DNA of 64,000 nt from Antedon mediterranea. Taxonomy: Eukaryota; Animalia; Echinodermata. This document shows positions 22,973-49,071 of the stretch, piece by piece. The notes below the pieces were generated by a model, which did no database searches, was not told the origin of the DNA, and saw only the letters and a program-made list of their open reading frames with translations. Position 1 is the stretch's first letter; every line of letters starts with the position of its first letter. Both the position numbers and the translations under genes were made by a program. The stretch is from positions 15,314,001 to 15,378,000 of the forward strand of contig NC_092671.1 in NCBI RefSeq assembly GCF_964355755.1, in the 5' to 3' direction.

Positions 22973-23598
22973 CTTGGAAGTCCTCTCAGTCTCAATACTC
23001 AACCTATGAAAATGAAAGAAAATAATAAAGTAAGCAAGTTTGTAATTCTAGTACTCCATTTCAAATACAGCCCCTGTCCCCAAATTTGCTGGTCTCCCTA
23101 TATAGGTTTATCGCAAATACCTTGATTTCACGAGAAACGTCATTGCACAATGCATGATGATCACTCACACAATTTGCGATAAACCTTATTGTCTACTAAC
23201 TACTACTAGCTAGGTAGGGCCTGCCTACACTACACTATACCTCCTAGGTTAGTACTAGGCCTAGTAGTTCTACAGTACTACTACTAGGCCCTCTAGTACT
23301 AGCTAGAGTGAGAGTAGGCCTTGGCCTAAACTAAAGCCTAAGCCTACTGTACTAACTACTATGCCTCGCCTAGGCTAGGTATGGCCAGCTATATAGCCTA
23401 CTTTACTGTACTTACTAGGCTAGGCCTAGGCCTACTAACTAAAAGGCCTAGCCTAGGCCTAGGCCTAGCTAGCTAGCTAGGCTAGGCCTAGGCCTAACTA
23501 GGCCTAGCCTAGGCCTAGTACTAGTTTGAAACTATTTCAAATACTAATACTGTCTGTGCTCAGCTAACATATTAGGATGGTGATTATATTATGCTCAC

Positions 23599-23682
23599 CT
23601 GTGTTTATTTCCCTTACAATTATGTACAAATCTATAGTTTTGGGGCTCATTTTGTCACCTTCTTCTCTCTGTTTCGTGCATC
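23599..23682 (-). other. Probable first (5' UTR) exon of FASTKD1-A, abutting the transposon left end
   Basis: Strong donor ACAG|GTGAGC at 23599/23598; matching acceptor TAG|G at 23004/23003 just upstream of the ATG at 22972. The 5' boundary is unknown. Confidence 0.6.
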
Positions 23683-23820
23683 CGGTCAGTCTAATTACCG
23701 AAAACAACCGAAAACAACCGAAAACAACCGAAAACAACCATAAACAACTGAAAACAACCATAAACAACCGAAAACAAACCGAAAACAAAATAACAATATC
23801 TAAATACCGAAAACAAATTT
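23683..23820 (+). repeat. Left TIR built of 10-bp AACCGAAAAC units
   Basis: Direct reading; inverted counterpart at 41538-41695. Confidence 0.95.
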
Positions 23821-24519
23821 GATGCAGCTACTATATTGACCTCGCACGCCAAACAAATTTCTACAGTATATTTTTTAAATGTCGCCCTCTATTGATAGGT
23901 GTTTCTAAAGCCAACAAGACCGCGCGCGCAAAGCCAAGGAGATAGAGACCATACGAAATGGAAGTGTGCACAAAATTTAACTCAATATCGTACAAACTCA
24001 ATGATAACACCGTGCATTTACTTACAGAATCTACAATATGTTAGATATTTAATATATATGTTACATGAATCTTACGGAGACAAGGAATTGTCTGTAGTCG
24101 TAAGACCCTTTGAAAAATAAAACATTATCATAGAAAAAAACATGAAATAAGGTTTTAAAGATACAAGTTGGAAAGTTAAAGTATTCCTACATATAATATA
24201 AAAGAAACTACATAATAGTAGCCTAACACTAACACGCACCACGCATAATATATAAGCATTTTAATATATAAGCATTTTTAAATACTGTAATTCGATATAA
24301 TCACTTCTAAAATATTTTTTAGTATTTTATAACAATTTTAACAACTAGGGATGGTTCTCGAATACATAGTATAATTTCAGCGATTTCAAATGTACTTACC
24401 GCATGACAATAATACACCACTTCTACGACGTTTATTTGTGTATATTGTGTTTATATGTAAAACAGTTTGTGAAAAACACCTCTATTCGGTGCAAATCGTA
24501 AATTAGCAGGTCTGAAAAT

Positions 24520-24702
24520 AATACTAAAAAGTGGTCAAAAATTGGGACCGTAGTCCGGATTGCCTCCAAATGTAATGGAGTGGTCCTTGGCCACATATTT
24601 CTTGCAATAACTTTTTTGAGTAATTCTGCTAACAAACAGACAGACAATCAAATAAACAGACACACGCGATCGATTAGAGATACCTCCTTGGCGGAGGTAA
24701 AT
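24520..24702. mobile_element. Helitron2/Helentron-associated non-autonomous element end
   Basis: (ACAG/ACAA)n microsatellite followed by the terminal hairpin ACCTCCTTGGCGGAGGT; family assignment is from memory. Confidence 0.45.
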
Positions 24703-25207
24703 AATAAATAACTTTTAAACCAATCAATTAATTGTGATAGAAGTATTGTGGTATTTGACTGACTTTGACAAATCAAGAAAGACGCCAATAAAAAAATCCC
24801 TTTTATGTAATGCTGAAGTAATTTTATTTCTATCTACCCAATTAATAAAGAAAAGCCAGTAATGCCAAATTCATTCTGCATACGACTGATCAGGATGTCG
24901 TGATCTATCGTATCAAAAGGATAAAAAAAAAACTGCCAAAACTAGCATAATATATCACCCTTTATCATGTTTCATCAACATAATATATCACTTTTAACGC
25001 GATAGAGCAGTTTCCGTACTATGAGATTTATTATATTATTTATACCGACTGATATGTTTCATAAAGTAGACAGGAAATGGTTAGATACTGAATAATCTTA
25101 CCTAACGTATGAAGGTTAGAAACTGGGCGAAAATCTGAGTTTAATGTTGATTTGGTCGGGAACCTAAACCAATAATTTCGCAAATCAACATTAGTAGACA
25201 TTCGTAG

Positions 25208-25580
25208 GGAGTGAGTGGCCGAGCGGTTACGACAGTGGAACAGTAATTACGGTCTTACTGAAAAACAACTTTTAGTTGAGTTAAGTATCCGTGATTAAAT
25301 AAAGCTTATTATTATTATTATTATTATAGCCATAACATCGGCAGGGGTTCGAGGCTCACTCACTCCGTGGTTCTGGTGGTTAGAACGAGTCTTCTCGGAT
25401 AAGGACTATAAACCGTAGGTCCAGTGTACACATCTCGCTCGTGTGCACTTTAAAGAACCTAGTACGAGACGAGTAGGGGGTTACCCCGGTGTATTAGTAC
25501 ATTACAGCCACTGATCACCAACTGGGTCCTCTGGGAGACCAGTCTTTGACTGAAGAGGTTACCCAGTATAAATATAAATT
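25208..25580 (+). mobile_element. Full-length tRNA-derived Deu/Nin-domain SINE, interrupted by a LINE-like 3' tail (~25250-25326)
   Basis: A box TGGCCGAGCGG, B box GGTTCGAGGC, GGAGTGAG/CTCACTCC stem, Deu-like core and AT-rich tail. The insert ends in AATAAA plus (ATT)n. Confidence 0.8.
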
Positions 25581-25967
25581 CAATCGATTCTGTGTTTTAA
25601 AACTTTTATTTTTATTTAAAATGTATTAGGATAAAAATGGGCAAAACGGATATATTGCTACATTTAAAAATGGAGGTCAAATACACAGTACAAATATTTT
25701 GTATATAGCCCGATTTAAACAAATGACAGGAGAAAAACATAATATCTATTTGGGTATTTATTTCTAACTATACGTTGATTTGTTTACAAACTTTTACGAT
25801 TGCATGTTCATTAAATTCGTCATAACCATGCCAGGTTACTTTCCAGAGGTGAATGACGATATAATATTTTTACATTAAATGCATTGGCGATATTGTTGTT
25901 ACCTTTATTTTATGTACATCAAGGATTATGTGTTGCGCTGTATTATACATTTTTTTTTACTTTGATG

Positions 25968-25969
<2 letters not shown>

Positions 25970-26035
<66 letters not shown>
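25970..26035. repeat. (TA)n microsatellite
   Basis: Direct reading. Confidence 0.97.
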
Positions 26036-26036
<1 letters not shown>

Positions 26037-26119
26037 TGAGGACTAGTTGTGTTCCAACCGTACCACGCCGAGAATGTTAAATTGTCGTTATCCAATCGAG
26101 TTAAAGAACAATACCATGA

Positions 26120-26300
26120 AATGGTCTAATGGTTAGGGCAACTGCATATCAAGCAGACGGTCCGAGTTCGAGTCTCGGTTGGGTCGACTTTTTCTCATTC
26201 TCACAGATTTCCTCATCTTTATCATTTCAAAAATTAATTAAATAATTTTCAGTGTATCACCGGGCGGTTTGGAATTTATTTCTATGCCTGTTGTGTTTTT
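26120..26300 (+). mobile_element. tRNA-headed repeat (second SINE-like family); decayed copies at ~59915-60030 and ~60170-60245
   Basis: TGGTCTAATGGTTAGG..CTGCATATC..GTTCGAGTC followed by the shared body TTTTTCTCATTCTCA. Confidence 0.65.
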
Positions 26301-26589
26301 ATATTTATACAATTGTATTGCGAAGCACTGTGTAAATTATATATAAATAAATACTGTCAAATTACAGTGCTCATCGGAACATGATCTCATAAACGCGTCA
26401 TTGGCGAAAGTTCCGTATTTTTTAGTTGTATGAAAAAATGTCTCTGGCGGGATTCGAACCTGTATATACGTTTCATACAAAAATTGTAATTAATCACGGC
26501 AAACAATTCTACGTAGTTCCTCGGAAATCTGTCTTAAGGCCATAACTGACAGGCCTATGCAACTCATCGAATTAATTTACTAACTTATT

Positions 26590-26830
26590 TTACAGAATTG
26601 ATGCCGTCAAGAACTTGGCTGGGATGATGCAATACCTCGCACCATCCAATCCGAATATTGGTTAGATGAACTTAGAAGGCATGAAATATGTTACAAACTA
26701 CAACACAAAAAGTATGCGAGAGCGAATTACACCCTTTTTTAGATGCTATAATTAAGGGCCAGCGTTTCTGTAGTTGATGACACTAACTATCGATGAGGCA
26801 GCACCCATAGATAGTAATGAAAATAAGTCA
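26590..26830 (+). mobile_element. Possible BEL/Pao LTR-retrotransposon pol remnant
   Basis: Decayed translation ILQN*CRQELGWDDAIP resembles the Pao motif LQxLC..LGWDxxIP. Confidence 0.4.
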
Positions 26831-26949
26831 GTCTGAGATTTTCAACATGGGAGAACCTCTGGAAAACTATAGCTTGGGTACCAGGTCCTGAAATACAAGG
26901 CTCGACTGAGACAAATATTAAAACTACCAAGGAAGAAGAATGGATCCAT

Positions 26950-27070
26950 CAATATTCTATCTACCCAATTTAAAGAAAAGCCAGTAATGCCAAATTCCTT
27001 CTGCATACGACTGATCAGGATGTCGTGATCTATCGTATCAAAAGGATAAATAACCTGCAAAAACTAGCGT
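26950..27070 (-). mobile_element. CR1/L2-type LINE reverse transcriptase fragment; second copy at ~24828-24948
   Basis: FDTIDHDILISRMQKEFGITG..LNW matches the AFDTxDH RT motif. Confidence 0.7.
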
Positions 27071-28111
27071 TAACAAAATTATTGAACCAGTATGAATATG
27101 ATGTTTCAAAAGAGCACGTCATGAAGACCACAACATTTGAGAAATGTCTATTCCCACAATCAAATGCAATCACACACGTATAAAGCATGCTGTGTATTTC
27201 AGTTTCTTATAGATACGGTATCAGTAACTTGAACTAGTATATTATGGAGATACTCTGTGGAGATCGATAGTTCTATCAACTATGGTTGTTCATTTATTTG
27301 GTGCTCTTTAAGTATAGAATAGATAAAGATAAGCTAAAGCGTATCAAGCTCCAAATGGCGCGTTATACCTTAAAAAAAGCACCTCTGGTTGGTCTCCAAT
27401 TAACTGAGATCCATAACGCTCTTTGTATGAAATACTAAAGATGGAAGTGTAATTGTGAATCCAAATATATTTTCTCCTCTCTCCTTTTAAATGTCTAAAA
27501 TTTTAAGAAACTTAACTCTATAATGATAGATGAATGGAGAATTGAATTACAAAACAAATCGTTTGTATTATTAATAAGCTGTGTTTTCTGTTGATTTTAT
27601 TTAATACAATTTCACTATATTTCTTTATTCATTTTTGTACAGTAATGATCTACCCTATGTCCCTATGTATCGATTAAAATTGGTTGGGGTGTTGCGGAGG
27701 GTAGAGGATATTTTAGGGGTTGTTAGTTGTTTTTTGCCTTTATAATTTTCTGTATGTATATTGTTATATTTTGTATTGTTATTGTGAAGGATGCACGTGA
27801 ATTTATCGGCTACTATTCACTGTTTAAAAACACAGACGATTTATTGTTGACACTTGAGAATTTGTATAAGTTATTCATAAATCTAATTTTTTTACGAAAA
27901 AAGAACCTAATTTCACAACTAATTTTAGTGAATTTTCATATATTTATATTTAATCTCTATCGAACGGTGGGGCAGGGAATAGGCCTAATGGAGGAGGTAG
28001 GAGGGTGGGGATGAGCTATATTATAATGATGTAGGCATATGTATAATACCATTAAAATATACAATAGACACATTATAATGTCAACAACCTTATAATAAAA
28101 CAAATACTAAT

Positions 28112-29145
28112 GGAGAAAAACTCGAAAACAGAGACCCCCACTAAAACGTCTCATTATATTGGGGGTCTCTTTTTTTGAGATTTCCCGAGACCCCCTAATA
28201 TAATCCCTGTTTATTGAGAGTGTTGCAAATACCCACCAACGAGCTTGGTCATAAATTATTAAAACCCAACTTTTATCGCAAAAACCGTGAATTTATGTTT
28301 ATTTATTTATCAATTTATTTTTATTTTTTTAATTCATTTCTTTTTAAAGGTTCGCCCAACACAATATATTTGTCTTCATCCTCCAGTCTGCCTCAAAGTC
28401 TGACCTCATATCATTTTGTTATTGCATTGTACGTTATTATCTTTTATGCTTGTTAATAAAGGTTACGAAACTAGTGTCAGTTTTTGAAATAATCTCCCGC
28501 TTTTTAGCTTCTAACATGCATTTATACATCTTACTTAACTTCTAGGACGTCGACCTTGTATTCCAAAATGACAGTCTCTTCACACGCGTTCAAGAATTCA
28601 TCAATCTTCTTATCGTTGCGGCATGTTCTTTGATATCGGCATATCAGTTACCGTTTATTACTGATACGTCATTCTGTGATTTTGAGACGTTTTAGTGGGG
28701 ACCCCCTATATAACGTAATATTGACCTAATATTGAGACGTTTTAGTGGGGGTCTCTGTTTTCGAGTTTTTCTCGAAAACAGAGACCCCTATATAACGTAA
28801 TATTGACTTAATATTGAAACGTTTTAGTGGAGGTCTCTGTTTTCTAGAAAAACTCGAAAACTGAGACCCCCTATATAACGTAATATTGACTTAATATTAA
28901 GAAGTTTTAATGGGGGTATCTGTTTTCGAGTTTTTCTGGAAAACAGAGACCCCCTATGTAACGTAATATTGACTTAATATTGAGACGTTTTAATGGGGGT
29001 ATCTGTTTTCGAGTTTTTCTGGAAAACAGAGACCCCCTATATAACGTATTATTTAGACGTTTTAGTGGGGGTCTCTGTTTTCCAGATTTTCTCGAAAACA
29101 GAGACCCTGGGTCTCGGGTCTCTGGTCTCTGTTTTTGAGACACCC
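28112..29145. repeat. Foldback-like element: ~82-83-bp tandem units, each with an 18-bp-stem hairpin (28683-29145), and a truncated inverted arm (28112-28200)
   Basis: GGGGTCTCTGTTTTCGAG-TTTTT-CTCGAAAACAGAGACCCC occurs 5 times with variants; the array ends in the TIR-like GAGACACCC. Confidence 0.8.
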
Positions 29146-30587
29146 GTTTCGACCTATCTCTTAGTCTCTGGTCTCTGTGTTCGAAGAACCTTAGTAATTT
29201 TATCAAGATCATACAAAGGAGTTCCTTACATGTTTATTCTTGACGGTAACCTATTTTGCAATATGTCAGTGGAATAACTGGCATTTTATCGGAGTCGGAC
29301 GGTTTTGTCAAAATAGTGTTTGATATGGCGATAGCACCGGTTCCGTGTGCGGTTATTATCAAAGCAGCCTGTTGGTTTCCGATTTCTTAAAGATGGTCCC
29401 AAATATGAGAGCAGCTTTGGCAAAATGTGCATTGCGATTGGTCTAGAACTTTGACGGTGTTAGGCTTCAGAAAATAAGCCAATAAAAAAGACCTTCATGC
29501 AACTATGTAAAAAGCGTGGTTCTGCTGAAGTTTCTTTCCACTATTTAAAGCGATAAAAAAACACATCATACCTTTATTCTTGAATTCTCACTGGAGAAAA
29601 TCCATCTAAATCTTTATTTTTGTACAGTTCAGTTCAGTTGTACAACAGTTCAGTCTATTTTTACTTAACCGTTCGGTTCTGACGAGCACACAGTGGTAAG
29701 TCATTCATAATTATTTACAGTTCATTTTTTAATAGTTAATCATTATTCAGTGTATAAAGAATGCTTTAATTTAAATATCTACAACGGTATTCAAGTTATT
29801 TATTTGTGCGAATCGCAATTTTTCGCGTATAATTTTTACCCAAAAATCATCAAACTAATCATTTTGACTAATAATGATATAAAGAATTGAAAAACAATAA
29901 AGCCTAAGTTAAGCAATTTGATTTGTGTACTTGTTTTTTTTCTTTTTCTCTTTTGTGGCGCAAACACCACTTTTATTCACATTCATATTATCTCATATTA
30001 CATAAAATCGTATTATTTAACTTGTAAATGTCGTTACAGTTCATAAGTAACATTTTTACATATATGAATTCTGTATTACTCCTTTTTTCATTAATTTTCT
30101 TATATTTTGTTATACACTTGACAGGATCATCATTATCATCTATCCCGTTTTAAAATAGTTCACACATTTTCATTTGTTTGTTTTCATTTTACAACCCGGA
30201 TTATACAATATATTTATATACATGATAAAAATAAACAATAATAGCTCAGTACCACCAGTAACCCGTATCACTGTAATTCTTTTTCTGTTAATCGTATCAA
30301 ATTAGAAATTATATTATCATAATCTTATTTCTTAAAGCTACCCATTTTTCTATACTTTTTTCTTTATTGTTATATGTTTCACATTCAATGTTATATAACA
30401 TATTGCTTTTAAATGAATTCCATAAAGATTTACCGACTGGCTTATTTAGTGCAGATAACATTTTTATTCTATAAATAGTAAATGCTGCAAAAGTGTAAAT
30501 ATAATCTGATAAATATAATGTGTACTTGCTAATGATAGGACCTTACAATTGCTTTCAAACCAATTGTTCTTATTTTACTTTCAGAAT

Positions 30588-33500
30588 ATGTACAGACAAA
30601 AAAGGCAGCACAAAAAAACTAGACCTTGTTTAACTTGTTTTGATTGTGACAAGAAAAAAACGGGGAAATACTTTTGTGGTGTTTGTAAGTTTGCGTGCAA
30701 CAATGACAGTATATTTTGTGATTATTGCTTACGCTGGTTCCACATATTGTGCGAAAACTTAACTAAAGCAAACTTGCATAGCTTAGGTAACTCTCCTTTG
30801 CATTTCACTTGTTCCGAATGCTGTAGCCCTAATGGCAGTTTTGATTTTTTGGCCTCATTAGAGCGTATTGATTCAGCTACCAAAAACAATTACAATATAC
30901 TTGACATAGCGCAAAGTGAACGTTTATTTCTACGTAATCATCGCTTTAGTAAACCCCCGTTTACGATATCTCAACAGTATGTCATCGATGCTGTTTCTAC
31001 AAGTATAATGAACAAATGTGGAGGTGGGCGTTTAATCCCTGTATCTGTCGCTGGTGACGGTAGCTGCTTGTTTAATGCCGTAGCTGTTGCTTTGACTGGC
31101 AATGAAAACATTGCTACTGAACTTCGCGTAAGAACATTTGTTGATATGGTAGAAAAAGAAACATTCTACAAGGAACTGCACAAACATTCAAAAATTGCTT
31201 TAACCAGTCCTGATTACAATCTCGCTTGTTCAGATTGTAGTCGTGAAAGCGGTTATTCTTCAGCTTGGCAGATACAGGCGTTGTCTAGTGTTATAGGGCA
31301 AGAAATTATTTCTGTGTATCCTCCTTATAATGGCGTTACTGACAATGCACATCGCATATTGAATAGAAGTTTTTATCCTTGCGAAGAAACAGCTGACAGA
31401 CATCCGATTTTTATTATGTGGACTAGTACACTATTACCTTCTTCAAAGGGTACGTGGATTCCTAACCACTTTGTCCCGTTATTGGACAGTTCTTTAATAG
31501 ATGAGAGAGTGTGTTTACCCGAAATATTGTCATCTTGCTTGTCATCTACTTCGTATGACGACATTGGTCACAAGAAAGTAATCAAAAGGAAAGGTAAATT
31601 AGGCCTACTCTACTAATTTAGACAAATGGTTTCTTATTTATTTGTACAAATTTAAAAAAAATAAAATTTTAGGATAAGAATACACAAAACTTATCCGTAC
31701 GTAGTGTACGCAATAGATTGGTTCATTGTTATTTTTTATTGTAACGAAGTTATCTCAGAGGTGTGTTTATATTATTGACCGAGATAAATCTAAATTTTTA
31801 TAGTTCAAAAAAAGAAAAGGCGACCGAAAATGAAAGAACGAATCGCAACTATAGTACCCATATCATCTGATTCCGTTGACTCAACACCACAGGTTGATCC
31901 TACAGACTTTCCCTCCACTTCTGTTGATACACAACCTTTCCATAAACGGGATATGATTTCCCTATCTCCACTGTCCACGCCCAACAGCGACAACGTACCC
32001 ATGTCGATGACAACGCCCGACTTGAAAACCACAACAGATACGCAACATGCAAGAGGTAGTGTTTTGTTCTGTTATTTTTTTTTTAACAAAGACATGTTTT
32101 ATTTAATAAGTGTAGGCGTCTATAGAAAACTGAGATATCTGATTGTATCTACATCAAATACAATTGTGTGTTTGTACTTATCGATATGAATCTACATTTT
32201 TATAGTGCGAAAAAAGAAAACAAGGCGACCGAAGAAGAAGCAACGAATCGCAACCACAGTAACCATATCATCTGATTCCGTTGACTCAACACTTGATCCT
32301 ACAGACTTTCCCTCCACTTCTGTTGATAGACAACCTTTCCATAAACGTGATATGATTTCCATATCTCCACTCTCCACATCAAACAGCGACAACGGCAAAA
32401 AGACAGACACAAATGCCACGATGGCTAATTTAGAGGGCTATCCAGCTACCTCTTTTTTTAACCAATCTTCCAATATAGATTCTGATCTGATTTCATTATC
32501 ACACCCATTTTCTGACCCCAACAAGAACAGCAATGATCATGCAGACACCAATGAAAAGTTACTACCTAATCATAATGATGTATTGCATATGCCTATAACA
32601 GGAAAGCCTTCCGATAGTGTGATTTTCCAATCCCCAATTTGTAACCCCCACAGCGAAATCATAAAGGAAAAAAGCACCATAAAAACTATGCAACATGAAG
32701 GTAAGTGTTTTGTTCGTTTTGATCTTCGCATTACAAGATCTGTGTTAGAAAACACAAATTTTAGATATATCTAAGTTTTCTAGATCTAAAAAACTCAGAT
32801 ATTTGAGTTTCCTAGAATTATGAAATTTAAATAACAAGATCCGAGTTTCAATCTTCAAATATAAAAATCAAATCACATAATACAGTAAATCGTGTCATTA
32901 TTAATAAGAGGGTAGTGTTTAAAATACACCTATCATTGTAAGTACTGTTATTTGCAATATAGTACTGCGGTCAACCTGCATAAAATGCGCCTAAAATGTA
33001 TAACATGATATAGAACACTGTTCAATGTCTGATTGTTTATCATGTATGTTATTTACCTTTAAAAGGCAAAAGAAAAGCTCCCAGCAATAGCCTGAAAATA
33101 TAGGGGAATACATTTGTAGTTATGTATTGCATTATGGTTTGACAAATATTTTATATATTTTCAAAAAGGAAAACAGCAGAGGCGACACACTGTATTTTTC
33201 AAGATTGAAGATGTCGGTGATAATTCACCAATTATATTTTCTTCGTCCGAGTCTGAAGTTGATCCTACAGACTTTCCCTCCAATTCTGTTGATAGACAAC
33301 CTTTCCATAAACGGGATATGATTTCCATATCTCCACTGTCCACACCCAACAGCGACAACGTACCCATGTCGATGACAACGCCCGACTTGAAAACCACAAA
33401 AGATACGCAACATGCAGGAGGTAGTGTTTTGTTCTGTTTTTTTTTTTGTAAAAAATAAATGTTTTATTCAATAAGTGTAGGTGTCTATAGGAAACTGAGA

Positions 33501-36500
33501 TATCTGATTGTATCTAGATCAAATAACATTGTGTGTTTGTACTTATCGATATGAATCTACATTTTTATAGTACGAAAAAAGAAAACAAGGCGACCGAAGA
33601 AGAAGCAACGAATCGCAACCATAGCAACCATATCGTCTGATTCCGTTGACTCAACACCACAGGTTGATCCTACAGACTTTCCCTCCACTTCTGTTGATAC
33701 ACAACCTTTCCATAAACGGGATATGTTTTCCATATCTCCAATCTCCACACCAAACAGCGACAACGTACCCTTGTCGATGACAACGCCCGACTTGAAAACT
33801 ACAACAGCTACGCAACATGCAGGAGGTAGTGTTTTGTTCTGTTTTTTTTTTTTTTAACAAAGACATGTTTTATTTAATAAGTGTAGGTGTCTATAGAAAA
33901 CTGAGATATCTGATTGTATCTACATCAAATACAATTGTGTGTTTGTACTTATCGATATGAATCTACATTTTTATAGTGCGGAAAAAGAAAACAAGGCGAC
34001 CGAAGAAGAAGCAACGAATCGCAACCACAGTAACCATATCTTCTGATTCCGTTGACTCAACACTTGATCCTTCAGACTTTCTCTCCACTTCTGTTGATAG
34101 ACAACCTTTCCATAAATGTGATGTGATTTCCATATCTCCACTCTCCACATCAAACAGCGACAACGGCAAAAAGACAGACACTAATGCCACGATGGCTAAT
34201 TTTGAGGGCATTCCAGCTACCTCTTTTTTTAACCAATCTTCCAATATAGATTTTGATCATCAATTTTCTGACCCCAACAACGACAGCAGTGATCATGCAG
34301 ACACCAATGAAAAGTTACTACCTAATCGTAATGATGTATTGCATATGCCTATAACAGGAAAGCCTTCTGATAGTGTGATTTTCCAATCCCCAATTTGTAA
34401 CCCCCACAGCGAAATCATAAAGGAAAGAAGCACGTCGATGACAACGCCCGACTTGAAAACCACAAAAACTATGCAACATGAAGGTAAGTGTTTTGTTCGT
34501 TTTGATCTTCGCATTACAAGAATAGATCTGTGTTAGAAAACACAAATTTTAGATATATCTAAGTTTTCTAGATCTAAAAAACTCAGATATTTGAGTTTCC
34601 TATATTTATGAAATTTAAATAACAAGATCCGAGTTTCAAGCTTCAAATATAAAAATCAAATCACATAATACAGTAAGTCGTGTCATTGTTAATAAGAGGG
34701 TAGTGTTTAAAATACACCTATCATTGTAAGTACTCATTGTTATTTGCCAAAAATAGTACTGCGGTCAACCTGCATAAAATGCGGCTAAAATGTATATCAT
34801 GATATAGAACACGATTCAATGTCTGATTGTTTATCATGTATGTTATTTACCTTTAAAAAGCAAAGGAAAAGCTCCCAGCAATAGCCTGAAAATATAGGGG
34901 AATACATGTATAGTTATGCATTGCATTATGGTTTGACAAATATTTTATATATTTTCAAAAAGGAAAACACCAGAGGCGACACACTGTATTTTTCAAGATT
35001 GAAGATGTCGGCGATAATTCACCATTTATATTTTCTTCGTCCGAGTCTGAAGTTGATCCTACAGACTTTCCCTCCACTTCTGTTGATACACAACCTTTCC
35101 ATAAACGGGATATGATTTCCATATCTCCACTGTTCACACCAAATAGCGACAACGTACCCATGTCGATGACAACGCCCGACTTAAAAACCACGAAAGTAAC
35201 GAATCATGCAGGAGGTAGTGTTTTGATCTGTTGTTTTTTTTTTTAACAAAGTAATGTTTTATTCAATAAGTGTAGGTGTCTATAGGAAACTGAGATATCT
35301 GAATGTATCTAGATCATATAACATTGTGTGTTTTTACTTATCGATATGAATCTACATTTTATAGTGCGGAAAAAGAAAACAAGGCGACCGAAGAAGAAGC
35401 AACGAATCGCAACCATATCATCTGATTCCGTTGACTCAACACCACAGGTTGATCCTACAGACGTTCCCTCCACTTCTGTTGATAGACAACCTTTCCATAA
35501 ACGTGATATGATTTCCATATCTCCACGCTCCACACCAAACAGCGACAACAGCAAAAAGACAGACACAAATGCCACGATGGCTAATTTTAAGGGCATTCCA
35601 GCTACCTCTTTTTTTAGCCAATCTTCCGATATAGATTTTGATTTGATTTCATTATCACATCAATTTTCTGACTCCAACAACGACAGCAGTGATCATACAG
35701 ACACCAATGAAAAGTTACTACCTAATCGTAATGATGTATTGCATACGCCTATAACAGGAAGGCCTTCCGGCGATAGTGTGATTTTCCAATCCCCAATTTG
35801 TAACCCCCACAGCGAAATCATAAAGGAAAAAAGCACGTCGATGACAACGCCCGACTCGAAAACCACAAAAACTATGCAACATGAAAGTAAGTGTTTTGTT
35901 CGTTTTGATCTTCGCATTACAAGATCTGTGTTAGAAAACACAAGTTTTAAATATATCTAAGTTTCCTAGATCTAAAAAACTCAGATATTTGAGTTTCTTA
36001 AATTTATGATATTTCAATAACAAGATTCGAGTTTCATTATTCAAATAGAAAACTCAAATCACCAAATACAGTAAATCGTGTCATTATTAATAAGAGGGTA
36101 GTGTTTAAAATACACCTATCATTGTAAGTACTGTTATTTGCAATAGTACTGCGGTCAACCTGCATAAAATGCGGATAAAATGTATCATGATATAGAACAC
36201 GATTCAATGTCTGATTGTTTATCATGTACTGTATGTTATTTACCGTTAAAAAGCAAAAGAAAAGCTCCCAGCAATAGCATGAAAATATAGGGGAATACAT
36301 TTGTAAGTTATGTATTGCTTTATGGTTTGACAAATATTTATATATTTTTAAAAAGGAAAAAAACAGAGGGGACACACTGCATTTGTCAAGATTGAAGACG
36401 TCGGCGATAATTCACCAATTATATTTTCTTCGTCCGAGTCTGAAGTTGCTCTAAGTAATTCCGAAACACGATACAGTCACATAAACAATTCATTTAGTTC

Positions 36501-38817
36501 TGATCTGGAAAAGCAAGGTTCGTTATTTAATTTACACAACCTAATTGAAACACTATATTAATAAAATCTACATTATCTTTGTGTGACACAATATTCGAAA
36601 ACAAAATTCATTATCATTTCCAATATGCAATTAAAATTAAAATAATTCTGTTTATTTTTGTGGGAAATTGTGACGGCTGATATCTTTTATTTTCCAAATA
36701 AAACTATCTTTAGATGTATCGACTACGTTTTAGCGTGTTCTTAAGGTACAATTACATGTTACTAATATACTAATATTCTATTGTGAAAATATTACATATA
36801 AAATAGAAAATGCATGCATCATACATTTGCTCAAAAGTAACTATTGAAATAAAGTTTATAAACAGTGCCCGCAAAAAAGGAAACATGCCTATTACTGTTA
36901 TTAAATATTTTGAAATTTTCAATATGCTTCGTTTTAGGTGACCGAATGTCGTGCAAAAGGTTCACAAAGCGGTTGTTAAACAAAAAATTTGTTCAGGTGT
37001 CTGAACTATACCAAATCCTCATGAAAACATCAGAAAATGCAACATTCCCAGACATTCCGCAGGGTGTTAAAGAAAATATGTTATTTGTTGTCAACAATGA
37101 AGGCAATGTACAACAACGTTTTGGAGGTGGTCGTAGCTTCTTTCCTGATGATTGTGGTGTATGGGACTCGTCAAGTAGTAGTACTCCGAAGACACAGTTC
37201 ACAAGAGTAGCTGGAAGGCTTATCACCATTGTCTTTAAGTGTGATAGATTTTGCATTAAAAAAAACGGTACTTGGGTCCCGCTCGTACCACAACCGACTA
37301 ATATTATAACTTTGCATAGGTGTTATTGTAAATTAAAACGAGACAAAGGGTACAAAAAACGAGTGTCGTGGATAGAAAACGAAAACGAAAAAATGAACAA
37401 CTTCAATAGGCCTAAAGCAGTAGTTGAATACATTGGCAATTTTCCTTTTACCATTTCGTCACATGGTAATGACAGACATACACACACAGAATACGTACGT
37501 ACTCATCCGAAAGTTCTACGTGATGCTGAATGTAGACTTGTCCATTCCAAACCCAGGGATACTTACGCAGATATGGTTTTTTCTAACCCCGAAAGCGCAC
37601 CCAGAGATATGAAACAACTGAGAAATTTGAAATATAACCGATCAAAAAAACTCACCACAGGTAGTAGGTCTAATGTTGCCGATGATATACAAAATTTAAT
37701 AACCGAATTAACAAAACATGAATTTGTAAAAAAAGTCTTTGCTGTACCTAATCAGCCTCCTTGTGTAATTCTGTACACAAACAATCAAATTAATGACTTA
37801 CGAAGGTTTTGTTGTGGCAATATTTCTCAAAGTATACTAGGGATCGATAGGACTTTTAACTTGGGGGCTTGCTATTTAACGGTTACTGTTTTTAAAAACA
37901 CTCTATTGCTTAAAAAAGAAGCAAATGATCATCCCATTTTTGTCGGCCCGATGCTATTACACTGGGATGGTCGGTACAGCACGTATCTTGATTTCTTTAC
38001 ACATTTGCGTTGTCAGCTTGACAGTGACATAAACAATTCCGAAGTTGGTATGAGTTGTAATATGGTCATAGGTTCCGACGAAGAAAAGGCAATTTTGAAA
38101 GCTTTAAACTTTTCTTTCCCCAATTCGCGACACATATTGTGCACAAGGCATATCAAGCAAAATGCATCTCGTTACTTGCTTGAAAAGCAAGGAGCAAATA
38201 ATAAGTACCGACAAATAATACTAAACAAAATCTTTTCGCCGTCCGGATTACTTGGGAGTACAAACATTTCACAATTTGACAAACGTTCACTACAATTGGA
38301 AATAGATTTCCAAAAACAAGTTCCACTATTTGGAAATTATTTTAGAGATAAACTGTGCCCAACCTTAAAAGAAAAGGTTTTCAGACCCAATATTACCGAC
38401 CGAGTGATTCCGGACCGTTGGACAAACAACAACTGCGAAAGCATAAATCACATTCTAAAACTATCCATTAACTGGAAACCACAAAGGCTTCCAGATTTAG
38501 TACAAATTCTACACAAAATTGCGAAATTACAATATGCAGACGCCCGGCGTGCAATTCACGGACAAGGCAATTTTTACGTTATCCCTAGATTAAAGAAATA
38601 TACAGTGCCAAATTCGGTTTGGATAGGGAAATCTGAAGATGAAAAAAACAAATATGTTTTACGATTTTTGAAAATATCACTGAACAAAACAGTTGCAAAA
38701 ACAACAACATCTAAAGACGGGAAATTAATTATTCCTGCAACACCACAATGTGCTAAAAAACCAGGACAAAAAAAAAGAACCAGAGTTGCAAAAACCACAT
38801 CATTCAGTAAGAAATAA
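30588..38817 (+). CDS. PHD finger - OTU-like protease - repeated linker - MULE transposase fusion (~1860 aa); exons 30588-31593, 31804-32055, 32206-32700, 33169-33420, 33571-33825, 33977-34483, 34963-35214, 35365-35886, 36356-36517, 36938-38817
   Basis: Nine GT-AG introns, all phase 1; joined length 5583 nt with no stop. PHD C4HC3: CGVC..CDYC..WFHILC..CSEC. OTU-like motifs GDGSCLFNA and NHFVP. MULE triad GIDRTFN / GSDEEKA..CTRH / TNNNCESIN. Probable non-coding first exon ends at 29695 (G|GTAAGT). Confidence 0.8.
31780..36450 (+). repeat. Tandem exon-plus-intron duplications (offsets ~1.77 kb and ~1.39 kb) forming the linker
   Basis: Repeated RKKKTRRPKKKQR, DPTDFPSTSVD.QPFHKRDMIS and near-identical intron sequences. 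Confidence 0.95.
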
Positions 38818-41537
38818 GAGTTGTATCAAGACTTGAAAGAATTAATGGTGAAGATTTTACTTAGGCTATTTTATATTCACACTTATTTGAAACTCATAAT
38901 CTACAATAATTACACTCTTTTTATAATAATATTGTTTTGTATATGTTTTTAACTTAATATCATTTATATTAAATCAGTATATACTTGTATAATACAAAGA
39001 TTTGAATGTGAAAAAAATAGTACCGTATTTATTCGAATAAATTGAATAAATGCAACCCAACCCCTCTAATTAGGGCGACAATTACACAAACTAATTTTTA
39101 CTCTATTTAACACGTCGTGATGTAATTGTATTGTAGTTTTCATATTGAAGAGGTTCCGAGATATCTATTGAACCATTTTACACCAAAAAAAAAAATAAAA
39201 AGTGCATTAAGCTTATTCAATCGGTTTCCCTAAATTTTGTCGAAGAACCCCATTATCCACGCCATCAATGTGTCAAAAGCTAGTAATTTGATTAAATGTT
39301 CTCAGTTGTGTTTTATGTCGCACATTTAATAATTCCACATCTCGTACGTTTTACTATTACTTTAACAATGAAACGTTTATTATTAAAGGTAGGCCTACCT
39401 TAGTTTCTCGTGTTATTAATTCTGTTTGCACTTATTAAATCTATCTTTTTATATTAATTATTGTTAAAGTTAAGTCGCATTTTAAATATACTTATGTATT
39501 TACTCCAGTATTTGTCACAGTGTTAAATTTTTATTATTTAATAACGCATTTACTAGATAGCATTTACAGATTATTATTGCAATTTTAAATATGTTTATAT
39601 TGGTTTGTACATGGAGGTCCTCCATGGTTTGTATAACACTACTTCCTAAAAACATACGTTCTCTGTCTAACAATTTTTAAAAGCAATGCAATCGTATCCG
39701 ATTTAGATTGACAACTTAGCAGTTGTAAATATTCAGTTTTGCAATTAGCATTAAGTTATAAAATTTCTTTTTTCTTTTAAACTTTTGTTCGATAATTTGT
39801 ATTTTTTCTCCACATAGAATATAAATCACTTTGCCTTCAACAAACATGTGTATTAAGTTTGTTCTTTTTCAAAAAAAAATTCACAAATTGATATTTTATT
39901 GAGTTTCAACCTATACCTAAAAAAACATTAGATTTCAGTATGTTTTGTGTGTTTTTTTTTACAAATTAAATTTAGGTAGATGTTGATAATACATTTGATA
40001 TCTTGAATCAAGTTTGTATACCTCAAAAACATTATATTTAATGCCTTTCCTCTGGTCAAGAGACGAGATAAGCCCTTGACCAATGTTAGGACCAATCAAG
40101 GTGCTTTAAACAGTCCTGGCTTTGTTTGTATCAAACCTGTTAGTGGCGGTAATTATCGCTGTTGGTTTTTATTTTAATAAAATAAAAAATAAAAAAATAA
40201 AAAAGGAATTATGTTACAGATTTTCAGTTGTGTTCTCATGTATTATTTAAAACATGAAAAATGTTATTTATTTACTACACTATGTTATTTAAATTTAGTT
40301 TGTTGTAGTTAAACAAACATGGCTAGATGTTGATAATACATCTGATATCTTGAATCGAGTTTGTACCTCGAAAACAAAATGAAATTTAGTACTAAAAAGA
40401 TGTTACAGACTTGAGTTGTGTTCTCATGTTCTCTCAATATGATTAGGCCTAAGGTTAATAAAGATTTACAAGTTAATGAAACATGTTTGTGTTTTCACTT
40501 CCTGTCATCATTTTTGTCAGACTATTATATATATATATATATTTCAACGGAGAAAAACATTCATTAACTCATTAATCAGGGGAAACAACATTACGTTTAA
40601 TTGTTAAACAACTTAATCAAAATTAAGCTGTCGCTGCAAAAGACTTAAAATGAATCCTCTCTAAAACGCACACTGCTGGAATTAAGAATTTAACTTATTT
40701 AATAAATGTTTATATATTTTTCTTTTTTATTTTAACCTTGATTTTAATTTGTATTACAATACTTGTCTAGTCTAGTGGTGAATTGGGCATTACACCAGAA
40801 GGCTAGCTATACTCTTTCTTTCAAATTGATTTTTTAATGAAACAAGTACTTTGAACAAATTCATGCGTGAGCACATAGGCATCATTTTCTCTCTATTTGC
40901 ATTCAAATAAATTACAGTTATTCGTTTAGTGAACAAATAAATTCAAGAATCAACATTAAAATAACGTCAAATGATATGAGTTATGAGGTTCCATTTTTCA
41001 TGAATTTTACGCGCGAGAGTACCCATTTCCGGCCATCTAGCTAGGGGTGTCATGGGAGTAAATTAGCTTCGTCACAGGCCCCACCATGGTTCCAATACTT
41101 CTTATCATTTTATCAGAACTAAACTTACCCACCCACCCACAATGATCATCTCAGGCATTACAAATTTCTTAGTAGGCCTTCTAGCTGTTATATGGCCACC
41201 GAATAACAAAGTTTAATAAATAATAGACTATTTAATTAATTTTCAGTGGATTATTTGTTGGGTACTTGGGGGTATAGGCCTACTATAAAACAAAAAAACA
41301 CCTCTGACGTATTTAGCTTTGCTTTTTGCTTCTCAGTTTGAAATGAACATGTCATAGGGGAAAACTTTACCTTTGCTCCCCCCCCCCCCACATCTCCCTA
41401 TTTCAAAATCCTGGATCCGCCCCTGATTTTGGTGCCGAATACTCGTCAGATCCTGACAACCAAACCAAGGCTCACGTGTAATAACGCAGTGCTATCTACT
41501 TCAATATATCATTAATATAGAGGGCGACATAACAAAA

Positions 41538-41695
41538 AATTTGTTTTCGGTAATTAGATTTGTTTTAGTTTGTTTTCGGTTTGTTTTCGGTTGTTTAGGG
41601 TTGTTTCCGGTTGTTTTCGGTTGTTTTCGGTTATTTTCGGTTGTTTTCGGTTGTTTTCGGTTGTTTTCGGTTGTTTTCGGTAATTAGACTGACCC
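41538..41695 (-). repeat. Right TIR of the 18-kb element
   Basis: (TTGTTTTCGG)n followed by TAATTAGACTGACCC. Confidence 0.95.
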
Positions 41696-42916
41696 CGTGC
41701 ATCGCGTGCGATTAAAATAAAAAGAACTTTACAAATCGAAACGGTATTGCCAGACAACCATCTAAAAAAAGAAATACAATTTGAAAGCAAATATGATTAA
41801 TTTATTTATTACGATTATTATTTAATGATATAGTCATAAGAAATAAACAGATTATACCTAGTATAACCATGTTTATATAGGCTATACTATATTCTTAATT
41901 ATATTGTTGTTAATAAATAGAATTATAAAATATCCTGGCAAAATGTTCATGGAGGCTGACATATTGGATACCCCATGCCGCTTGCCGACCACGTTCCTTT
42001 TGAAAAGGAAGGAAGGCCAGGTAATAGTGTAATGGGCCTAGGCCTAAATTTGTTGACAAATGATAATAGGCTAAGTTAGTACGGATTTTAGTACATTACT
42101 TTAGTAGGGAATGTAGCCTAGCTAGGCCTAGGTCTAGCTAGGCTAGGCGTTTAATTATCTGTATGATATGAATATGTTTTTAATTTTATGTGTCATGTCA
42201 GACTTTGTTTTTTTTAGTCCTCTAGTAGTAGTTAGTACTACTACTAGGCCTACTACTACTAGGTAACATATAGAAGCTAGCTAAGCTAGACTATGGAATC
42301 CGATGCCTCTACTGGATCCTCTACTACCGTAGCTACTAGTACTAGGCCTAGGCCTATACTTTAGCCCCACTGCACTGGGCAAACAAGACATTTGACAATT
42401 GCATCAAAATATCTAGGCCAATGTTATTAGCCTAGGCCTAGGCCTATGCGCAATTTGTTTGAAATTGCACAAGGATATCCTTGGGCAATTTTTTGAACAC
42501 AAAGTAACACAAAGTCATCAGCTAAACTTGATCTGGTTGCACTAGGCAACTTTAGCTCATCATATAACACCCATCCATGCGGCGGTGAGAGAATCGCATC
42601 TTCCTAATTGTGCCGTCTAATTTATCTTCTCTTCTCTATTATAAAAACATAGGCCTAAATCTTTTTATTTATTTATGAAATTGTATTCTGTTAATTTATT
42701 TCAATAATATTATTATATTACATTTATTTATCAATTTAGGATATAAAGGTTTGCTGGGCGTACCTATCCACAGAGTTTAATTAATTTAATTGTTATATTA
42801 GATAAATTTTGTAGCACAATCCTCTATTAGAAATAATGGTTTATTATTATTTTACAGGAAAAAGGTGATCATGGTCTTACTGTAATTACAGAGTACACTG
42901 GTAAAGCATTAAAAAA

Positions 42917-45900
42917 ATGTTGTTTTGTAACAGGGCACGACCGTTTTGCCCTCCGTGGGGCTTTTTTTCACCAGAATCAACATTGTCACTTTTGAACAAG
43001 AAGAAGAATCTACTGTCTCAGAAATTAGCAAGTCAACTGCAGACTCGAAAGTATTACCAACAAAGATTGAAATCAGCTTTGAATACGTCATCAAGGAGGT
43101 CACTCAACTTTGCAAACAATCAATCAAGACATTTTATTCCTTGGAGAATCTTCTCTTTTTCAGATGCTGTGTCTGTAAAAGATGAAATTATTGCCGGGAA
43201 CACATTTGAAGACATTTTAAATGTTGTAGAGAAAAGAAGATCTTTGATGAACCCAATGCTAATCTCCGAAGCATTTATAAAACTCAGCAAGATAGTAGAA
43301 AACAATGACAACATTAAAGTTGATAATTTGTTTGAAGAAAATAAGAGTTTTGCAGATCTTTGCATTTTAGCAGAAAATCTTGTTTCAGAAACCAGCAATG
43401 ATGAGCTAATAGTTATCTTACACAGTCTGTATATAATATGTAGAGATGAGTGTTTGAGTCTATCAAATGTTGTTCAATCCGAGTGTCATAACCGTTTACA
43501 TTTGTTCAACCATAGTCAGTTGTCTTATGTAGCTAATTGGTTTCATAAGAGAAAACAGATTAAGAATCACACTTTGGGGCAGATTGCTGCAATTTACCAG
43601 AAAGAATTGTACCAGATAAATGATTTGGAAACCTTTGCACGATTGATGGTAGCTGTTATGCCAATATGTAGCCAAGAATTTGGTGAAGAGTCTTTGAAAC
43701 AAGCATTATGCCTCATAGAAACGTCAGATCCTGAGTTGGTTTCTGCTCAAACTGTTAAGCTCATTCTGCAAACACTAGTAGGCATGAAGAATTGCCATAC
43801 AGCGATTTTAAAGCATTGTGTTAACATACTTTTGCCACGGTTGATGAATTTGTCATTAAGTGATCTTGGCTCTATTCACCAGAATTTGTATTTCCTTGGA
43901 TTCAGTCACAAACAAATTAATTCATCTATACGTGCACGGTTTTTGAAAGAGCTTCCAGAAATTAAAGAAATCAAGGATATTATATGCGCAATGCAAGTTT
44001 TAGGACCAAGCCTATCTTCATTTGTTAGACATCGATTGGAACAAAAGCTTCTTGCAAATTCCCAAGATATATCTATAGAGTTCATACAAGGGGTTTGTAA
44101 TGGACTGCGTTTAATGAAGTACAATTTGGAATCGCCCATTATGAGAAAAATTACCAATATGATTATAGAATTCTCATCTGACCTCACAATATATGACCTA
44201 GTACGTGTATGCGAGTGCCTTAAGAATGTTGACATCTCACCCAAAGACAAAATATTTGACATTTTAACAAAAAGACTTTTGGAAATCTTAGAAACTGCCA
44301 TTACACCTGGACGAGTAAAAAATGTAGCATATTGTTTATCCCTCTTGCCGAGTGAGTCTCTAGATATAATGGTTATAGAACGACTAGAAAATATGTGGTC
44401 TTCTTTTCATCCTGGAGATATCCATCAAATTAAAAAAATATTAAATATTTTTTTGGAAAGAACATTTTTAAGTGGTTATGTAAAGAGTAGGTTACAGGCA
44501 TTTGTTTCAAAGGTTCACAGTTACTCTGAAGTGAACATCTGTAATTTTAAAAGCATAGTTTATCTGAACCAGCACCTTGACTATTTAATGAGATCAGGAG
44601 CTGAAAAAGACATTCTAGTGTACGCCATGGATCAGTACAGTAACTGTTTATATGGCTTGAGTCCAAAGATGGCAGTTCAGAGTATCAACAGGGTTGGAAA
44701 ATCGGGATATCTGCAGAAGGATGTCTTGGACAGAGCTGCTGAGGTCATTTCAGATAATCTGGAATGTATTTCGTTGAATCATATTTTAAACCTGTTAATA
44801 CCTTACTGTGTGTTTGACTACTTTCCTGCTTCTGTGCCCAAATTCGTTGACACTTGTGCTGAAATGATTCTACCATTTTTGGAAGTGCTATCATTAAATC
44901 ATCTTCTTCATCTTGCATACTTGCTGAGTTTAAATGGCAGTTTTCCAGAGCCTCTCATTAGAACAATTTTCAGTGTGGAATTTCTACTGAAGTTTGATAG
45001 ACAACAAATCAATTGTAGTAAGTCTTTATATTTAGTGTTAAAAAAAATCATAATGTTCCTAATTATGCTGGTGACTGGTTAACTTTTCCACACAAGGCCT
45101 TCCAACAAAACAGCATCCAACTAAAACAAGCCTTATAGGAAAGAACTGTTTTATGTTTTCCCATCCACACCAGGTGTCATTCTGCTTCAAAAATTAGACA
45201 TCCTGTCTAGTATAACTTGATGAAATGTTTGCCTATGAATTAACAGTGTAATAAATACTGAAAGTGTTTACTGTTATTTTATTTATGTATACTTTAGTTT
45301 CACCTAAGACGAAAGAGATCAACCTACATAGACTGTTTTTGGTGAATAGGTCAGTAGTACTGCAGTGCCCACAATACAACATTCCTTGGTTTCATCATGA
45401 TTATTCTGAAACATTTAGTCATCAAGGTAAGTATAGAAATTTATAAACCACCCACAAACTTTTAAACCACCCACTCCCTTCAAGTCATGTTCACACCGAG
45501 CCAAGTTTGTAAACCACTAACACCCTTTAAACCATGTTCACACCTAGCCAAGTTTGTAAACCACCCACTTTTATTTCTTCATCAATAAAATGTTCGTTTA
45601 CAATGCATTGTACTTGATTAATGTAATATTACAATACAATACAACTGACATTAAATAACTTTCAATACATCTTATATCTCCCCCTTTAAGCCATGTTCAC
45701 ATCTAGCCAAGAGTGTAAACCACCCACACCTAGCCCACCAATCTGAATTCATACCAAGCCAAACTAACTTGATGAAATGTTTCTATTTAAGAACACTTTA
45801 TAACCATTTTACATGAATTTTATCACAAGATCCTGCTTTATAGGTGCTTTTTTTATCTTAATATTATTCTCTGTAATTTTTTTTCAGTTTAGTTAATTAA

Positions 45901-48547: not shown

Positions 48548-49071
48548 GAGATCACTCTGGATTGAACAATAGCCTATTTGACTTATACTCTTTCTACACT
48601 CAAATATGGTAGTGATATGCTTAAATATGACAGTGATATGACATCATCATGTTCATTATGGGCAAACCACATTTGTTGTCACATAGAGTTTGATAGTGTA
48701 GACAGAGCTTGAGAGGCCAATAGAAGCATGGTTTTTAGAAATTGATGTAAAAATATATTATAAGTAGAATGTGTTGGTACAATAATATAATTTATAAAGG
48801 ATGTTCTTATTTCAACACAATTTAAAATTATAACATCATATTGTATGCAATTTAAATAACTTCTAAATGCAATATTGAAATTTATTTTTAAAAAGGTATG
48901 GATTGAAACAATCCATTTTCTATTGTAAAATAAACAATCAAATAATTGGTAAATGTTTGAATTTACTTTATTATGTGATAGATGGATATGAGCTACAGTG
49001 ATGAACTTGTTATGCTAACCATCTTTGTGAACATCAGACTACGACGAATTTCGGTCATTACCTTTGACGTA

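Follow-up and report, generated by a model that had tools for sequence, protein, structure and literature searches.

At this locus of the feather star Antedon mediterranea, two divergent genes are separated by a transposable element, which raises the questions of whether the element split a promoter that the two genes shared and whether a PHD finger in its own transposase brought it there. Within the window (the whole 64,000-nucleotide stretch of DNA analysed here), we favor the explanation, at a probability of roughly 0.72, that the 18-kb Mutator-like element (MULE) is a recent, segregating cut-and-paste insertion, probably located at the 5' end of gene A, which would lose its promoter while gene B would keep it. 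The observed parts of this explanation are the element ends, the 8-bp duplication, the empty allele, the intact reading frames, and a CpG motif on the gene B side. The insertion between the two genes is real but mostly ordinary, and constitutes a single case in which both the element and its location belong to known kinds.

An 18-kb Mutator-like element between two FASTKD1-like genes

Gene A (minus strand, coding exons at 17073-22972; 928 aa) has its ATG in exon 2 at 22972, and its exon-2 frame is 100% identical to RefSeq XP_071942667.1, with exons placed by tblastn. Gene B (plus strand, coding exons at 42917-48544; 951 aa) is identical to RefSeq XP_071942664-6. Both encode the FAST_1, FAST_2, and RAP domains that characterize the FASTK family; the tentative FASTKD1 label follows the RefSeq names, and in the Atlas clusters of gene A FASTKD1-like proteins rank on top at 0.98, with FASTKD3-like and FASTKD4-like proteins at 0.97. 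The two proteins share 30% identity. Their orthologues in Anneissia (64% and 59% identical to A and B, respectively) have consecutive accessions and both carry a scaffold length of 624,199 bp, and this pairing indicates that the gene pair is older than the insertion. Splicing was seen in run X5 at 20914 in gene A and across the intron at 45018-45297 in gene B (45017 joined to 45298), and solely for these two splices was this run taken as RNA-like.

The element occupies 23683-41695 (18,013 bp) and is flanked by an 8-bp target-site duplication, CGTGCATC, at 23675-23682 and 41696-41703 (plus strand); a 9-bp duplication was rejected because it would need one mismatched base. Its terminal inverted repeats are of the array type, with a left repeat of ~138 bp (23683-23820, plus strand) that consists of a 14-base tip followed by ~9 copies of a 10-mer, and a right repeat of ~158 bp (41538-41695, minus strand) with ~12 copies of the 10-mer. 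The tips pair at 56 of the 57 terminal bases, the exception being the outermost left base, which differs from the right end, and a 16-base end motif was found at both element ends only. Each end region contains 16 CpGs. A metagenome scan with a 21-base end motif yielded a single match, to an unrelated coding contig and attributable to chance. With a DDE transposase carrying CxxH, an 8-bp duplication, and long inverted ends, the element belongs to the Mutator/MULE superfamily, for which duplications of 8-11 bp are described (PMC6446971).

An empty allele points to a recent, segregating insertion

Public contigs also contain the site without the element. A single 4,063-nt contig of run X1 covers both flanks, its positions 1-174 corresponding to 23509-23682 and its positions 167-3931 to 41696-45460, with 0 differences from the window across 174 + 3,765 bases and with the duplication present once. 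Since this empty allele matches letter for letter and holds one copy of the duplication, the insertion is probably polymorphic. It is probably also recent, given the 56/57 match of the tips, the 1,860 stop-free codons described below, and the X1 contigs from the element interior, which are 99-100% alike to the window (depth = 37-107, compared with 8-10 in the flanks, where depth is not to be equated with copy number). The polymorphism and the open frame are indirect signs of active cut-and-paste transposition. The initial annotation had predicted that the first-exon donors would lie ~400 bp apart without the element; the measured distance is 401 bp, and the public contigs supply an actual empty allele. 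The reference assembly would thus hold a minority or private allele here, and the normal spacing of the gene pair would be 401 bp, not 18 kb.

Further contigs favor the empty allele from one side each. A contig of run X3 departs from the window at 41696 with 200 letters remaining, and a contig of the related organism B departs at 23682 with 3,947 letters remaining, as against 3,889 in X1, and gave no right-flank placement at 90% likeness. Run X5 has no cover across 41682-41917 and is uninformative on either allele. The element-flank junction is bridged by no listed contig in the five runs, so the window is the sole record of the inserted allele. That record might reflect a non-heritable state, such as a somatic jump captured in the assembly or a mis-join, or else the empty contigs might be products of precise excision of an older insertion; indeed, the empty contig alone accounts for the X1 and X3 depth over 41682-41807, and excision of Muta1 is reported to be precise in ~90% of events when the element is flanked by its duplication (PMC5225508). 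We consider these readings very improbable, as a mis-join would not yield an exact 8-base target duplication beside matching ends, and the departure of the organism-B contig at 23682 fits an ancestrally empty site. Moreover, contigs tend to lose short low-depth links into repeats.

The insertion left nearly the whole spacer with gene B

On the gene A side, a predicted non-coding exon 1 (23599-23682, minus strand) extends to at least 23679, into the target duplication, and precedes a predicted GT-AG intron 1 (23004-23598, minus strand) that is rich in TAGGCC at ~23200-23520. On the gene B side, the remainder of the spacer and the predicted exon 1 (41704-42020, plus strand), with RNA-like cover from 41918, end at donor 42020 and are followed by a predicted intron 1 (42021-42858, plus strand) that is rich in TAGGCC at ~42030-42460 and shows unspliced read-through in run X5. 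Of the shared spacer, gene A retains 84 bp with 1 CpG and gene B 325 bp with 10 CpGs, and the left end of the element lies 84 bp from donor 23599, in agreement with the ~85 bp given previously. The CpG-rich 15-mer CGTGCATCGCGTGCG (41696-41710, plus strand) is uncut in the inserted allele. Contrary to the earlier proposal that removal of the element restores this core, it is already whole, and what it regains in the empty allele is only its nearness to gene A. The split is therefore lopsided: of the proposed disruption of a promoter between two FASTKD1 paralogues, the head-to-head pair and the recent insertion at their 5' ends stand, but the symmetric split does not.

The two donors differ in their backing. 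Donor 23599 scored highest among the 204 minus-strand GT sites in 23050-25900 by a rough weight matrix and is consistent with the 83 letters left without a placement in an RNA-like contig, although the joint 23003-23599 derives from the point where the alignment stops, and 798 of 1,221 minus-strand GT sites give an identical stop. Donor 42020 ranked 2 of 50 by the same kind of rough matrix, and the single RNA-like run crosses it unspliced. The RNA-like contig of gene A provides indirect evidence that its 5' end falls in the target duplication itself. Two divergent start sites within ~1 kb constitute a bidirectional promoter; the RNA-like contigs extend to 23679 and 41918, which lie ~220 bp from each other in the empty allele, but contig ends do not reveal where transcription starts. 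As for coding potential, exon 1 of gene A was rejected as a source of additional N-terminal sequence: the ATG at 23681 is in frame and stops after 8 codons, and the ATG at 23650 is out of frame.

These data could instead mean that there was no compact two-way promoter, with gene A starting past the insertion point and/or gene B further to the right, each from its own promoter; the element would then lie in the 5' UTR of gene A, and gene B would use donor 42584 or begin near 42700. The contig of gene A stops no more than 4 bases from the insertion point, and a contig typically ends before the true start is reached. Likewise, the main RNA-like contig of gene B starts at 42708, 151 bases ahead of the acceptor, and donor 42584 outscores donor 42020. 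Alternative first exons are also indicated by the same gene B protein appearing under two RefSeq accessions and by the three N-termini of the Anneissia orthologue of gene A. However, TAGGCC tracts start right behind both proposed donors, an arrangement that seems to recur downstream of what look like the first exons of the ATP synthase c and JAZF1-like genes, and the unspliced pieces are shallow (3.6-4.6, compared with 13.3) and could represent DNA or pre-mRNA. On balance, we regard separate promoters as unlikely.

Under the preferred reading of a cut-and-paste insertion at the 5' end of gene A, the transposase would bind the 10-mer arrays at the element ends, cut the target with an 8-bp stagger, and insert the element at an active start site with its open chromatin, in the manner of maize Mu. 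Insertions of Mu and P are reported to be most concentrated within 50 bp of a start site (PMC7337890). On the inserted chromosome, gene B would be barely altered and gene A might be knocked down or be transcribed from the CpG-rich left end, and the empty chromosome would compensate for the loss of A. In maize, strong expression loss was reported for none of 4 Mu insertions in promoters and for 5 of 20 in 5' UTRs (PMC7337890), and transcripts begin inside Mu in 20 of 33 Mu alleles (bioRxiv 10.1101/2023.06.05.543741).

The element encodes a predicted PHD-OTU-MULE transposase

The first coding exon of the element gene (30588-31593, plus strand) encodes a PHD finger and an OTU-like protease. The finger spans aa 30-78 of the predicted protein (Pfam PHD, 23.9 bits; cut-off = 24), and the protease contains Cys160 and His294 (Pfam OTU, 24.3 bits; cut-off = 23.3). 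The structure model of the first-exon protein (pLDDT = 80) has OTU deubiquitinases as its top fold matches. Between 31804 and 36517 (plus strand) follow eight predicted and duplicated phase-1 linker exons (31804-32055, 32206-32700, 33169-33420, 33571-33825, 33977-34483, 34963-35214, 35365-35886, and 36356-36517), with AG/GT throughout, lengths divisible by three, and an open frame. The exon copies are 92-99% alike, and their introns equally so; according to the splice model, the eight exons would contribute 900 aa rich in S, T, D, and P. The last exon (36938-38817, plus strand) is an open frame for the MULE DDE transposase, with a domain score slightly below the Pfam cut-off (27.3 bits, E = 5e-6; cut-off = 27.6) and the motifs D (GIDRTF), D (GSDEE), CxxH (CTRH), and E (NNCES); 4,243 relatives were found.

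Joined in the splice model, the ten GT-AG exons form a single PHD-OTU-linker-MULE frame of 1,860 aa without a stop, which is collinear with the unspliced 969-aa protein P0005 across 984 columns. All three domains are fused in 13 of the 39 relatives that have a front part of at least 250 aa, whereas 24 of 37 long OTU-bearing relatives lack a PHD in the available sequence, some of which may be incomplete. The PHD-OTU part could in principle be a separate cargo gene and not part of the transposase, as its exon, left unspliced, reaches a stop at 31616; the continuous frame and the fused relatives argue otherwise and make this less likely. Hence the PHD-bearing transposase proposed by the initial annotation holds as a splice model, in which the transposase can have a PHD in the same chain.

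A PHD finger as a possible guide to promoters

It has been proposed that the preference of Mu-type and P elements for start sites involves tethering to an unknown partner (PMC7337890). A PHD finger that reads methylated H3K4 could tether the feather-star element to active promoters, with the OTU domain perhaps removing ubiquitin at the landing site, and would add to the preferred explanation of a recent insertion at the 5' end of gene A. The single open frame and the fused relatives speak for this idea, and the closest solved fingers are the H3K4me readers Pps and Pygopus. At the positions of the five cage residues of Pygo1 (Y341, V350, D352, A356, and W366; PMC2726290), the element finger aligns with Y, C, N, S, and W, and thus appears to have kept the larger share of the residues that form a Pygopus-type pocket for H3K4me, although the acidic D352 is replaced by N. 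All 13 aligned rows have the cage W, and 10 of the 13 have an aromatic residue where Pygo1 has Y, the rows having been chosen for their PHD.

The location of the element adds little, since the figure of ~2% of the non-element window lying within 100 bp of the five inferred start regions is no test in a window flagged for gene proximity, and one insertion (n = 1) cannot show enrichment. In addition, maize Mu follows H3K4me3 and start sites (PMC2774946), the available part of a MULE survey lists a PHD for Rehavkus only (PMC6446971), and most long OTU-bearing relatives show none in the available sequence. The PHD finger may aid landing, but a single insertion is explicable without it, and we consider tethering by the finger doubtful. 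About as doubtful, if marginally more so, is the wider proposal of a widespread invertebrate MULE lineage with a promoter-homing kit, in which a Pygopus-like PHD reads H3K4me and a seemingly active OTU domain clears ubiquitin, and whose CpG-rich end here, after landing on a start site, drives gene A. If true, this would be the first DNA transposon with a start-site tether encoded in its own transposase, and the feather-star locus would be a young segregating case with a natural pair of inserted and empty alleles. The tethering idea becomes testable here, in an animal MULE that is intact, probably moved recently, is predicted to bear its own PHD, and sits at a 5' end for which an empty allele is also available.

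Comparison with known systems

One close likeness is MuDR-6_HM (MULE group 14), compared by description only, which is likewise an animal MULE with one ORF and an 'Ovarian Tumour Gene' domain but is listed in the available text as having neither TIRs nor a zinc finger (PMC6446971). The feather-star element differs in its array-type ends and 8-bp duplication, and also in its front PHD and predicted spliced linker of 900 aa. Rehavkus also carries a PHD in the chain of a MULE-type transposase (by the splice model in our case), but is described with 9-bp duplications, a 3' minisatellite, and, in the same available text, no OTU (PMC6446971). No Rehavkus-type minisatellite precedes the right end here, where only the end 10-mers and a 15-bp doublet were found. 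In Ciona and C. elegans, PHD-bearing MULE transposases are reported to have the finger in the same chain at the C-terminus (PMC1702500), unlike the front position in the feather star.

The type-2 foldback MULEs Muta1-14 of Aedes aegypti similarly have 8-9-bp duplications and ends of ~145 bp with a short tip and tandem 9-15-bp subterminal repeats, while Muta1 is 3.2 kb long with a 504-aa transposase, and the available text does not mention 'PHD' (PMC5225508). Maize Mu and Drosophila P likewise insert at the 5' ends of ordinary genes, with possible outward reading (PMC7337890, PMC2774946, bioRxiv 10.1101/2023.06.05.543741); their preference rests on tens of thousands of insertions, compared with the one insertion here, where a candidate reader lies in the transposase.

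Other sequences nested in the element

Contigs of run X5 on the left arm of the element (depth = 10-18) may be DNA or stem from other copies, so no expression of the element is claimed. Contig depth and blastn identified a high-copy host repeat nested at 25210-25583, with a related copy at 20184-20385. Within 23000-43000, Rfam reported nothing beyond a tRNA-like stretch at 26120-26180 (plus strand; RF00005, 35.8 bits), which is probably the head of a nested SINE. The element interior also contains an 83-bp palindromic tandem array at 28700-29107.

Insertion site and empty allele

The 18,013-bp Mutator-like element (MULE) between genes A (minus strand) and B (plus strand) has its termini at 23683 and 41695, with 56 of 57 terminal bases identical (sole mismatch at the first base), and is bordered left and right by the 8-bp target duplication CGTGCATC. 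Inverted 10-mer arrays were located at both ends by repeat search (left, 23697-23788; right, 41560-41681), an end type described in PMC5225508, and each end contains 16 CpGs per ~277 bp. A second short inverted match, TGTCGCCCTCTAT (23883-23895 and ~41520-41532), lies ~200 bp inward of the ends, past these arrays. Since transposition declines once cargo exceeds about 6 kb (PMC6431247), the 18-kb element counts as large. Tandem 83-bp palindromic units with one outlying arm (28113-29107; arm, 28113-28157) stand upstream of its gene.

We compared the window with contigs from five of the ten public sequencing runs with partial coverage of 41700-45100. One contig of run X1 (4,063 nt, depth 8.27) places letters 1-174 on 23509-23682 and letters 167-3931 on 41696-45460, with 0 differences; the eight letters common to both placements are the target duplication, which is therefore single-copy in the empty allele. 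From the same sample, an X3 contig departs from the window at 41696 with 200 further letters. A 7,021-nt contig of a related organism departs at 23682, with 3,947 letters remaining versus 3,889 in X1; at 90% likeness it was not placed to the right of the element. Among the contigs listed, run X7 gave no piece at the junction, and none from the five runs spanned the inserted junction. Because contigs drop variants and the best-matching run may derive from the window's own source, a heterozygous animal and a separate empty animal are indistinguishable; in either case, the insertion site is polymorphic. Inside the element, X1 contigs are 99-100% alike to the window at 4 to 13 times flank depth, which suggests a small young family.

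The gene pair and its divided spacer

The long frames of gene A (20879-23047, minus) and gene B (42905-45082, plus) both bear a FAST_1 domain (Pfam), are 26% identical over 631 residues, and match at 100% Antedon mediterranea RefSeq proteins named FASTKD1-like, whose accessions run consecutively (XP_071942664-7). The FASTKD1 name itself rests on this RefSeq naming and on the top Atlas cluster for gene A (FASTKD1-like, 0.98; FASTKD3- and 4-like clusters score 0.97). Anneissia japonica has a separate orthologue of each gene (64% and 59% identity; A versus B, 30%), likewise with consecutive accessions and equal scaffold length, from which we infer that the adjacency of the pair predates the Antedon/Anneissia split. 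In a gene B intron, ~26 copies of a purine-only-like 22-mer occupy 46296-46879, and the short RefSeq isoform of gene B (790 aa) terminates after the exon immediately preceding this array.

On the empty allele, the predicted exon-1 donors (A, 23599; B, 42020) are 401 bp apart, as close as the initial annotation had stated. Its further claim that removing the element restores a CpG-containing core failed: the 15-mer is already whole in the inserted window (41696-41710), its first eight bases having been supplied anew there by the duplication. Gene A retains 84 bp of the spacer with 1 CpG, and gene B 325 bp with 10.

The RNA-like run X5 shows splicing at 20914 and 45017-45298. Its 1,394-nt contig, not among the contigs listed on the right flank, covers 21691-23001 and leaves 83 letters unplaced; 23001 is the leftmost placement for the joint 23003-23599, and the 83 letters then extend to 23679, within the duplication. 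This stop is compatible with 798 of 1,221 GT sites, so it does not single out donor 23599, which ranks best among 204 candidates in the stretch scored with a rough weight matrix. The gene A transcript thus probably extends to the insertion point, which would put the element either at the gene's start or within its 5' UTR. Gene B appears in X5 as unspliced pieces only (41918-42238, 42306-42615 and 42708-45017), leaving its predicted donor unconfirmed.

A predicted PHD-OTU-MULE protein

Within the element, 5.3 kb separates the frame that carries PHD and OTU from the MULE frame, and a duplicated-unit block lies in this gap. Ten predicted exons, each in phase 1 and bordered by AG/GT, combine into 1,860 stop-free codons; the first and last alone give 961 aa, aligning end to end with P0005, an unspliced single-frame relative of 969 aa (30%, 984 columns). 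Among the best 150 of 4,243 relatives, 39 have a front extension of at least 250 aa before the transposase, with an OTU domain in 37 and PHD + OTU in 13 of these; the remaining 111 fall short of this length, and many are probably incomplete. Named relatives among the matches listed include mantis shrimp and brachiopod proteins. The front-exon fold model (pLDDT 80) matches OTU deubiquitinases, and the predicted OTU residues Cys160 and His294 are invariant in 13/13 aligned rows (the window protein and 12 of the 13 PHD-bearing relatives). The open join, the collinearity with P0005, the PHD + OTU relatives and the OTU fold make the previously proposed PHD-bearing transposase well supported as a model from predicted splicing.

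The block at 31804-36517 comprises eight symmetric exons from tandem duplication within the transposase gene, all in frame, which would separate OTU from MULE by 900 low-complexity residues; the frame would be preserved whichever of these exons were skipped. Exon and intron copies are similar to about the same degree (92-99%), pointing to a recent expansion. Two other proteins, P0006 and P0008, carry an OTU-like domain of the element's kind behind a different, non-MULE transposase-like region. PMC6446971 lists MuDR-6_HM with OTU and Rehavkus with PHD, each sharing one domain with the element, and PMC1702500 describes fusions with OTU from Medicago and places the PHD of Ciona and C. elegans proteins at the C-terminus. 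Our literature search, covering sources other than subscription journals, Repbase and supplements, found no paper on the locus or on PHD-OTU-MULE targeting among the matches listed.

Proposed targeting and predicted effects

The closest solved fingers are Pps and Pygopus (E 0.0007-0.003). Aligned with the Pygo1 cage (residues from PMC2726290), the predicted finger keeps Y and W and has V to C, A to S and D to N; the W is conserved in 13/13 aligned relative rows. These residues would allow H3K4me binding; a single insertion could not in itself establish a landing preference.

The element was probably inserted by cut-and-paste where chromatin was open around the 5' end of an active gene, resembling maize Mu and fly P elements, whose insertions have their peak no more than 50 bp from start sites (PMC7337890) and track H3K4me3 (PMC2774946). 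Mu insertion effects are frequently mild (PMC7337890), and transcripts frequently start in Mu ends (bioRxiv 10.1101/2023.06.05.543741). Being CpG-rich, the ends could serve as a substitute promoter or else draw methylation; gene A would be affected, gene B little. The initial annotation is confirmed in part in its observation and supported in part in its interpretation. Element and site are both of known kinds, and the proven empty allele together with the intact predicted fused protein makes the locus somewhat more useful.

Other features of the window

A second apparent head-to-head pair (50020-57523) comprises ATP synthase subunit c, whose first exon falls near 51460 on the minus strand, and, on the plus strand from ~52200, a zinc-finger gene that we take to be JAZF1-like; within this pair, TGCGCATGC at 51714 is presumably an NRF1-type site. 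In four genes, tracts rich in TAGGCC/CTAG follow shortly after the start of the apparent first intron (23200-23520, 42030-42460, 51100-51240 and 52380-52600), with weaker clusters at 1500-2500, 5500-6000 and 8500-10000, and may mark promoter-proximal DNA in this genome. Coding exons 1 and 2 of a G-protein alpha subunit, presumably of Gq type, were identified on the minus strand (13340-13220 and 5283-5097; Pfam G-alpha). A 196-codon minus-strand frame (55559-56149), with no real Pfam match, resembles a LINE reverse-transcriptase gene in its terminal part. A 49-bp unit is repeated eight times in tandem at 62780-63183 and putatively corresponds to a tRNA-derived repeat cut down to its 5' half, and a palindromic miniature repeat has four copies outside the element (17346-17517, 48601-48656, 54370-54581 and 59458-59564).
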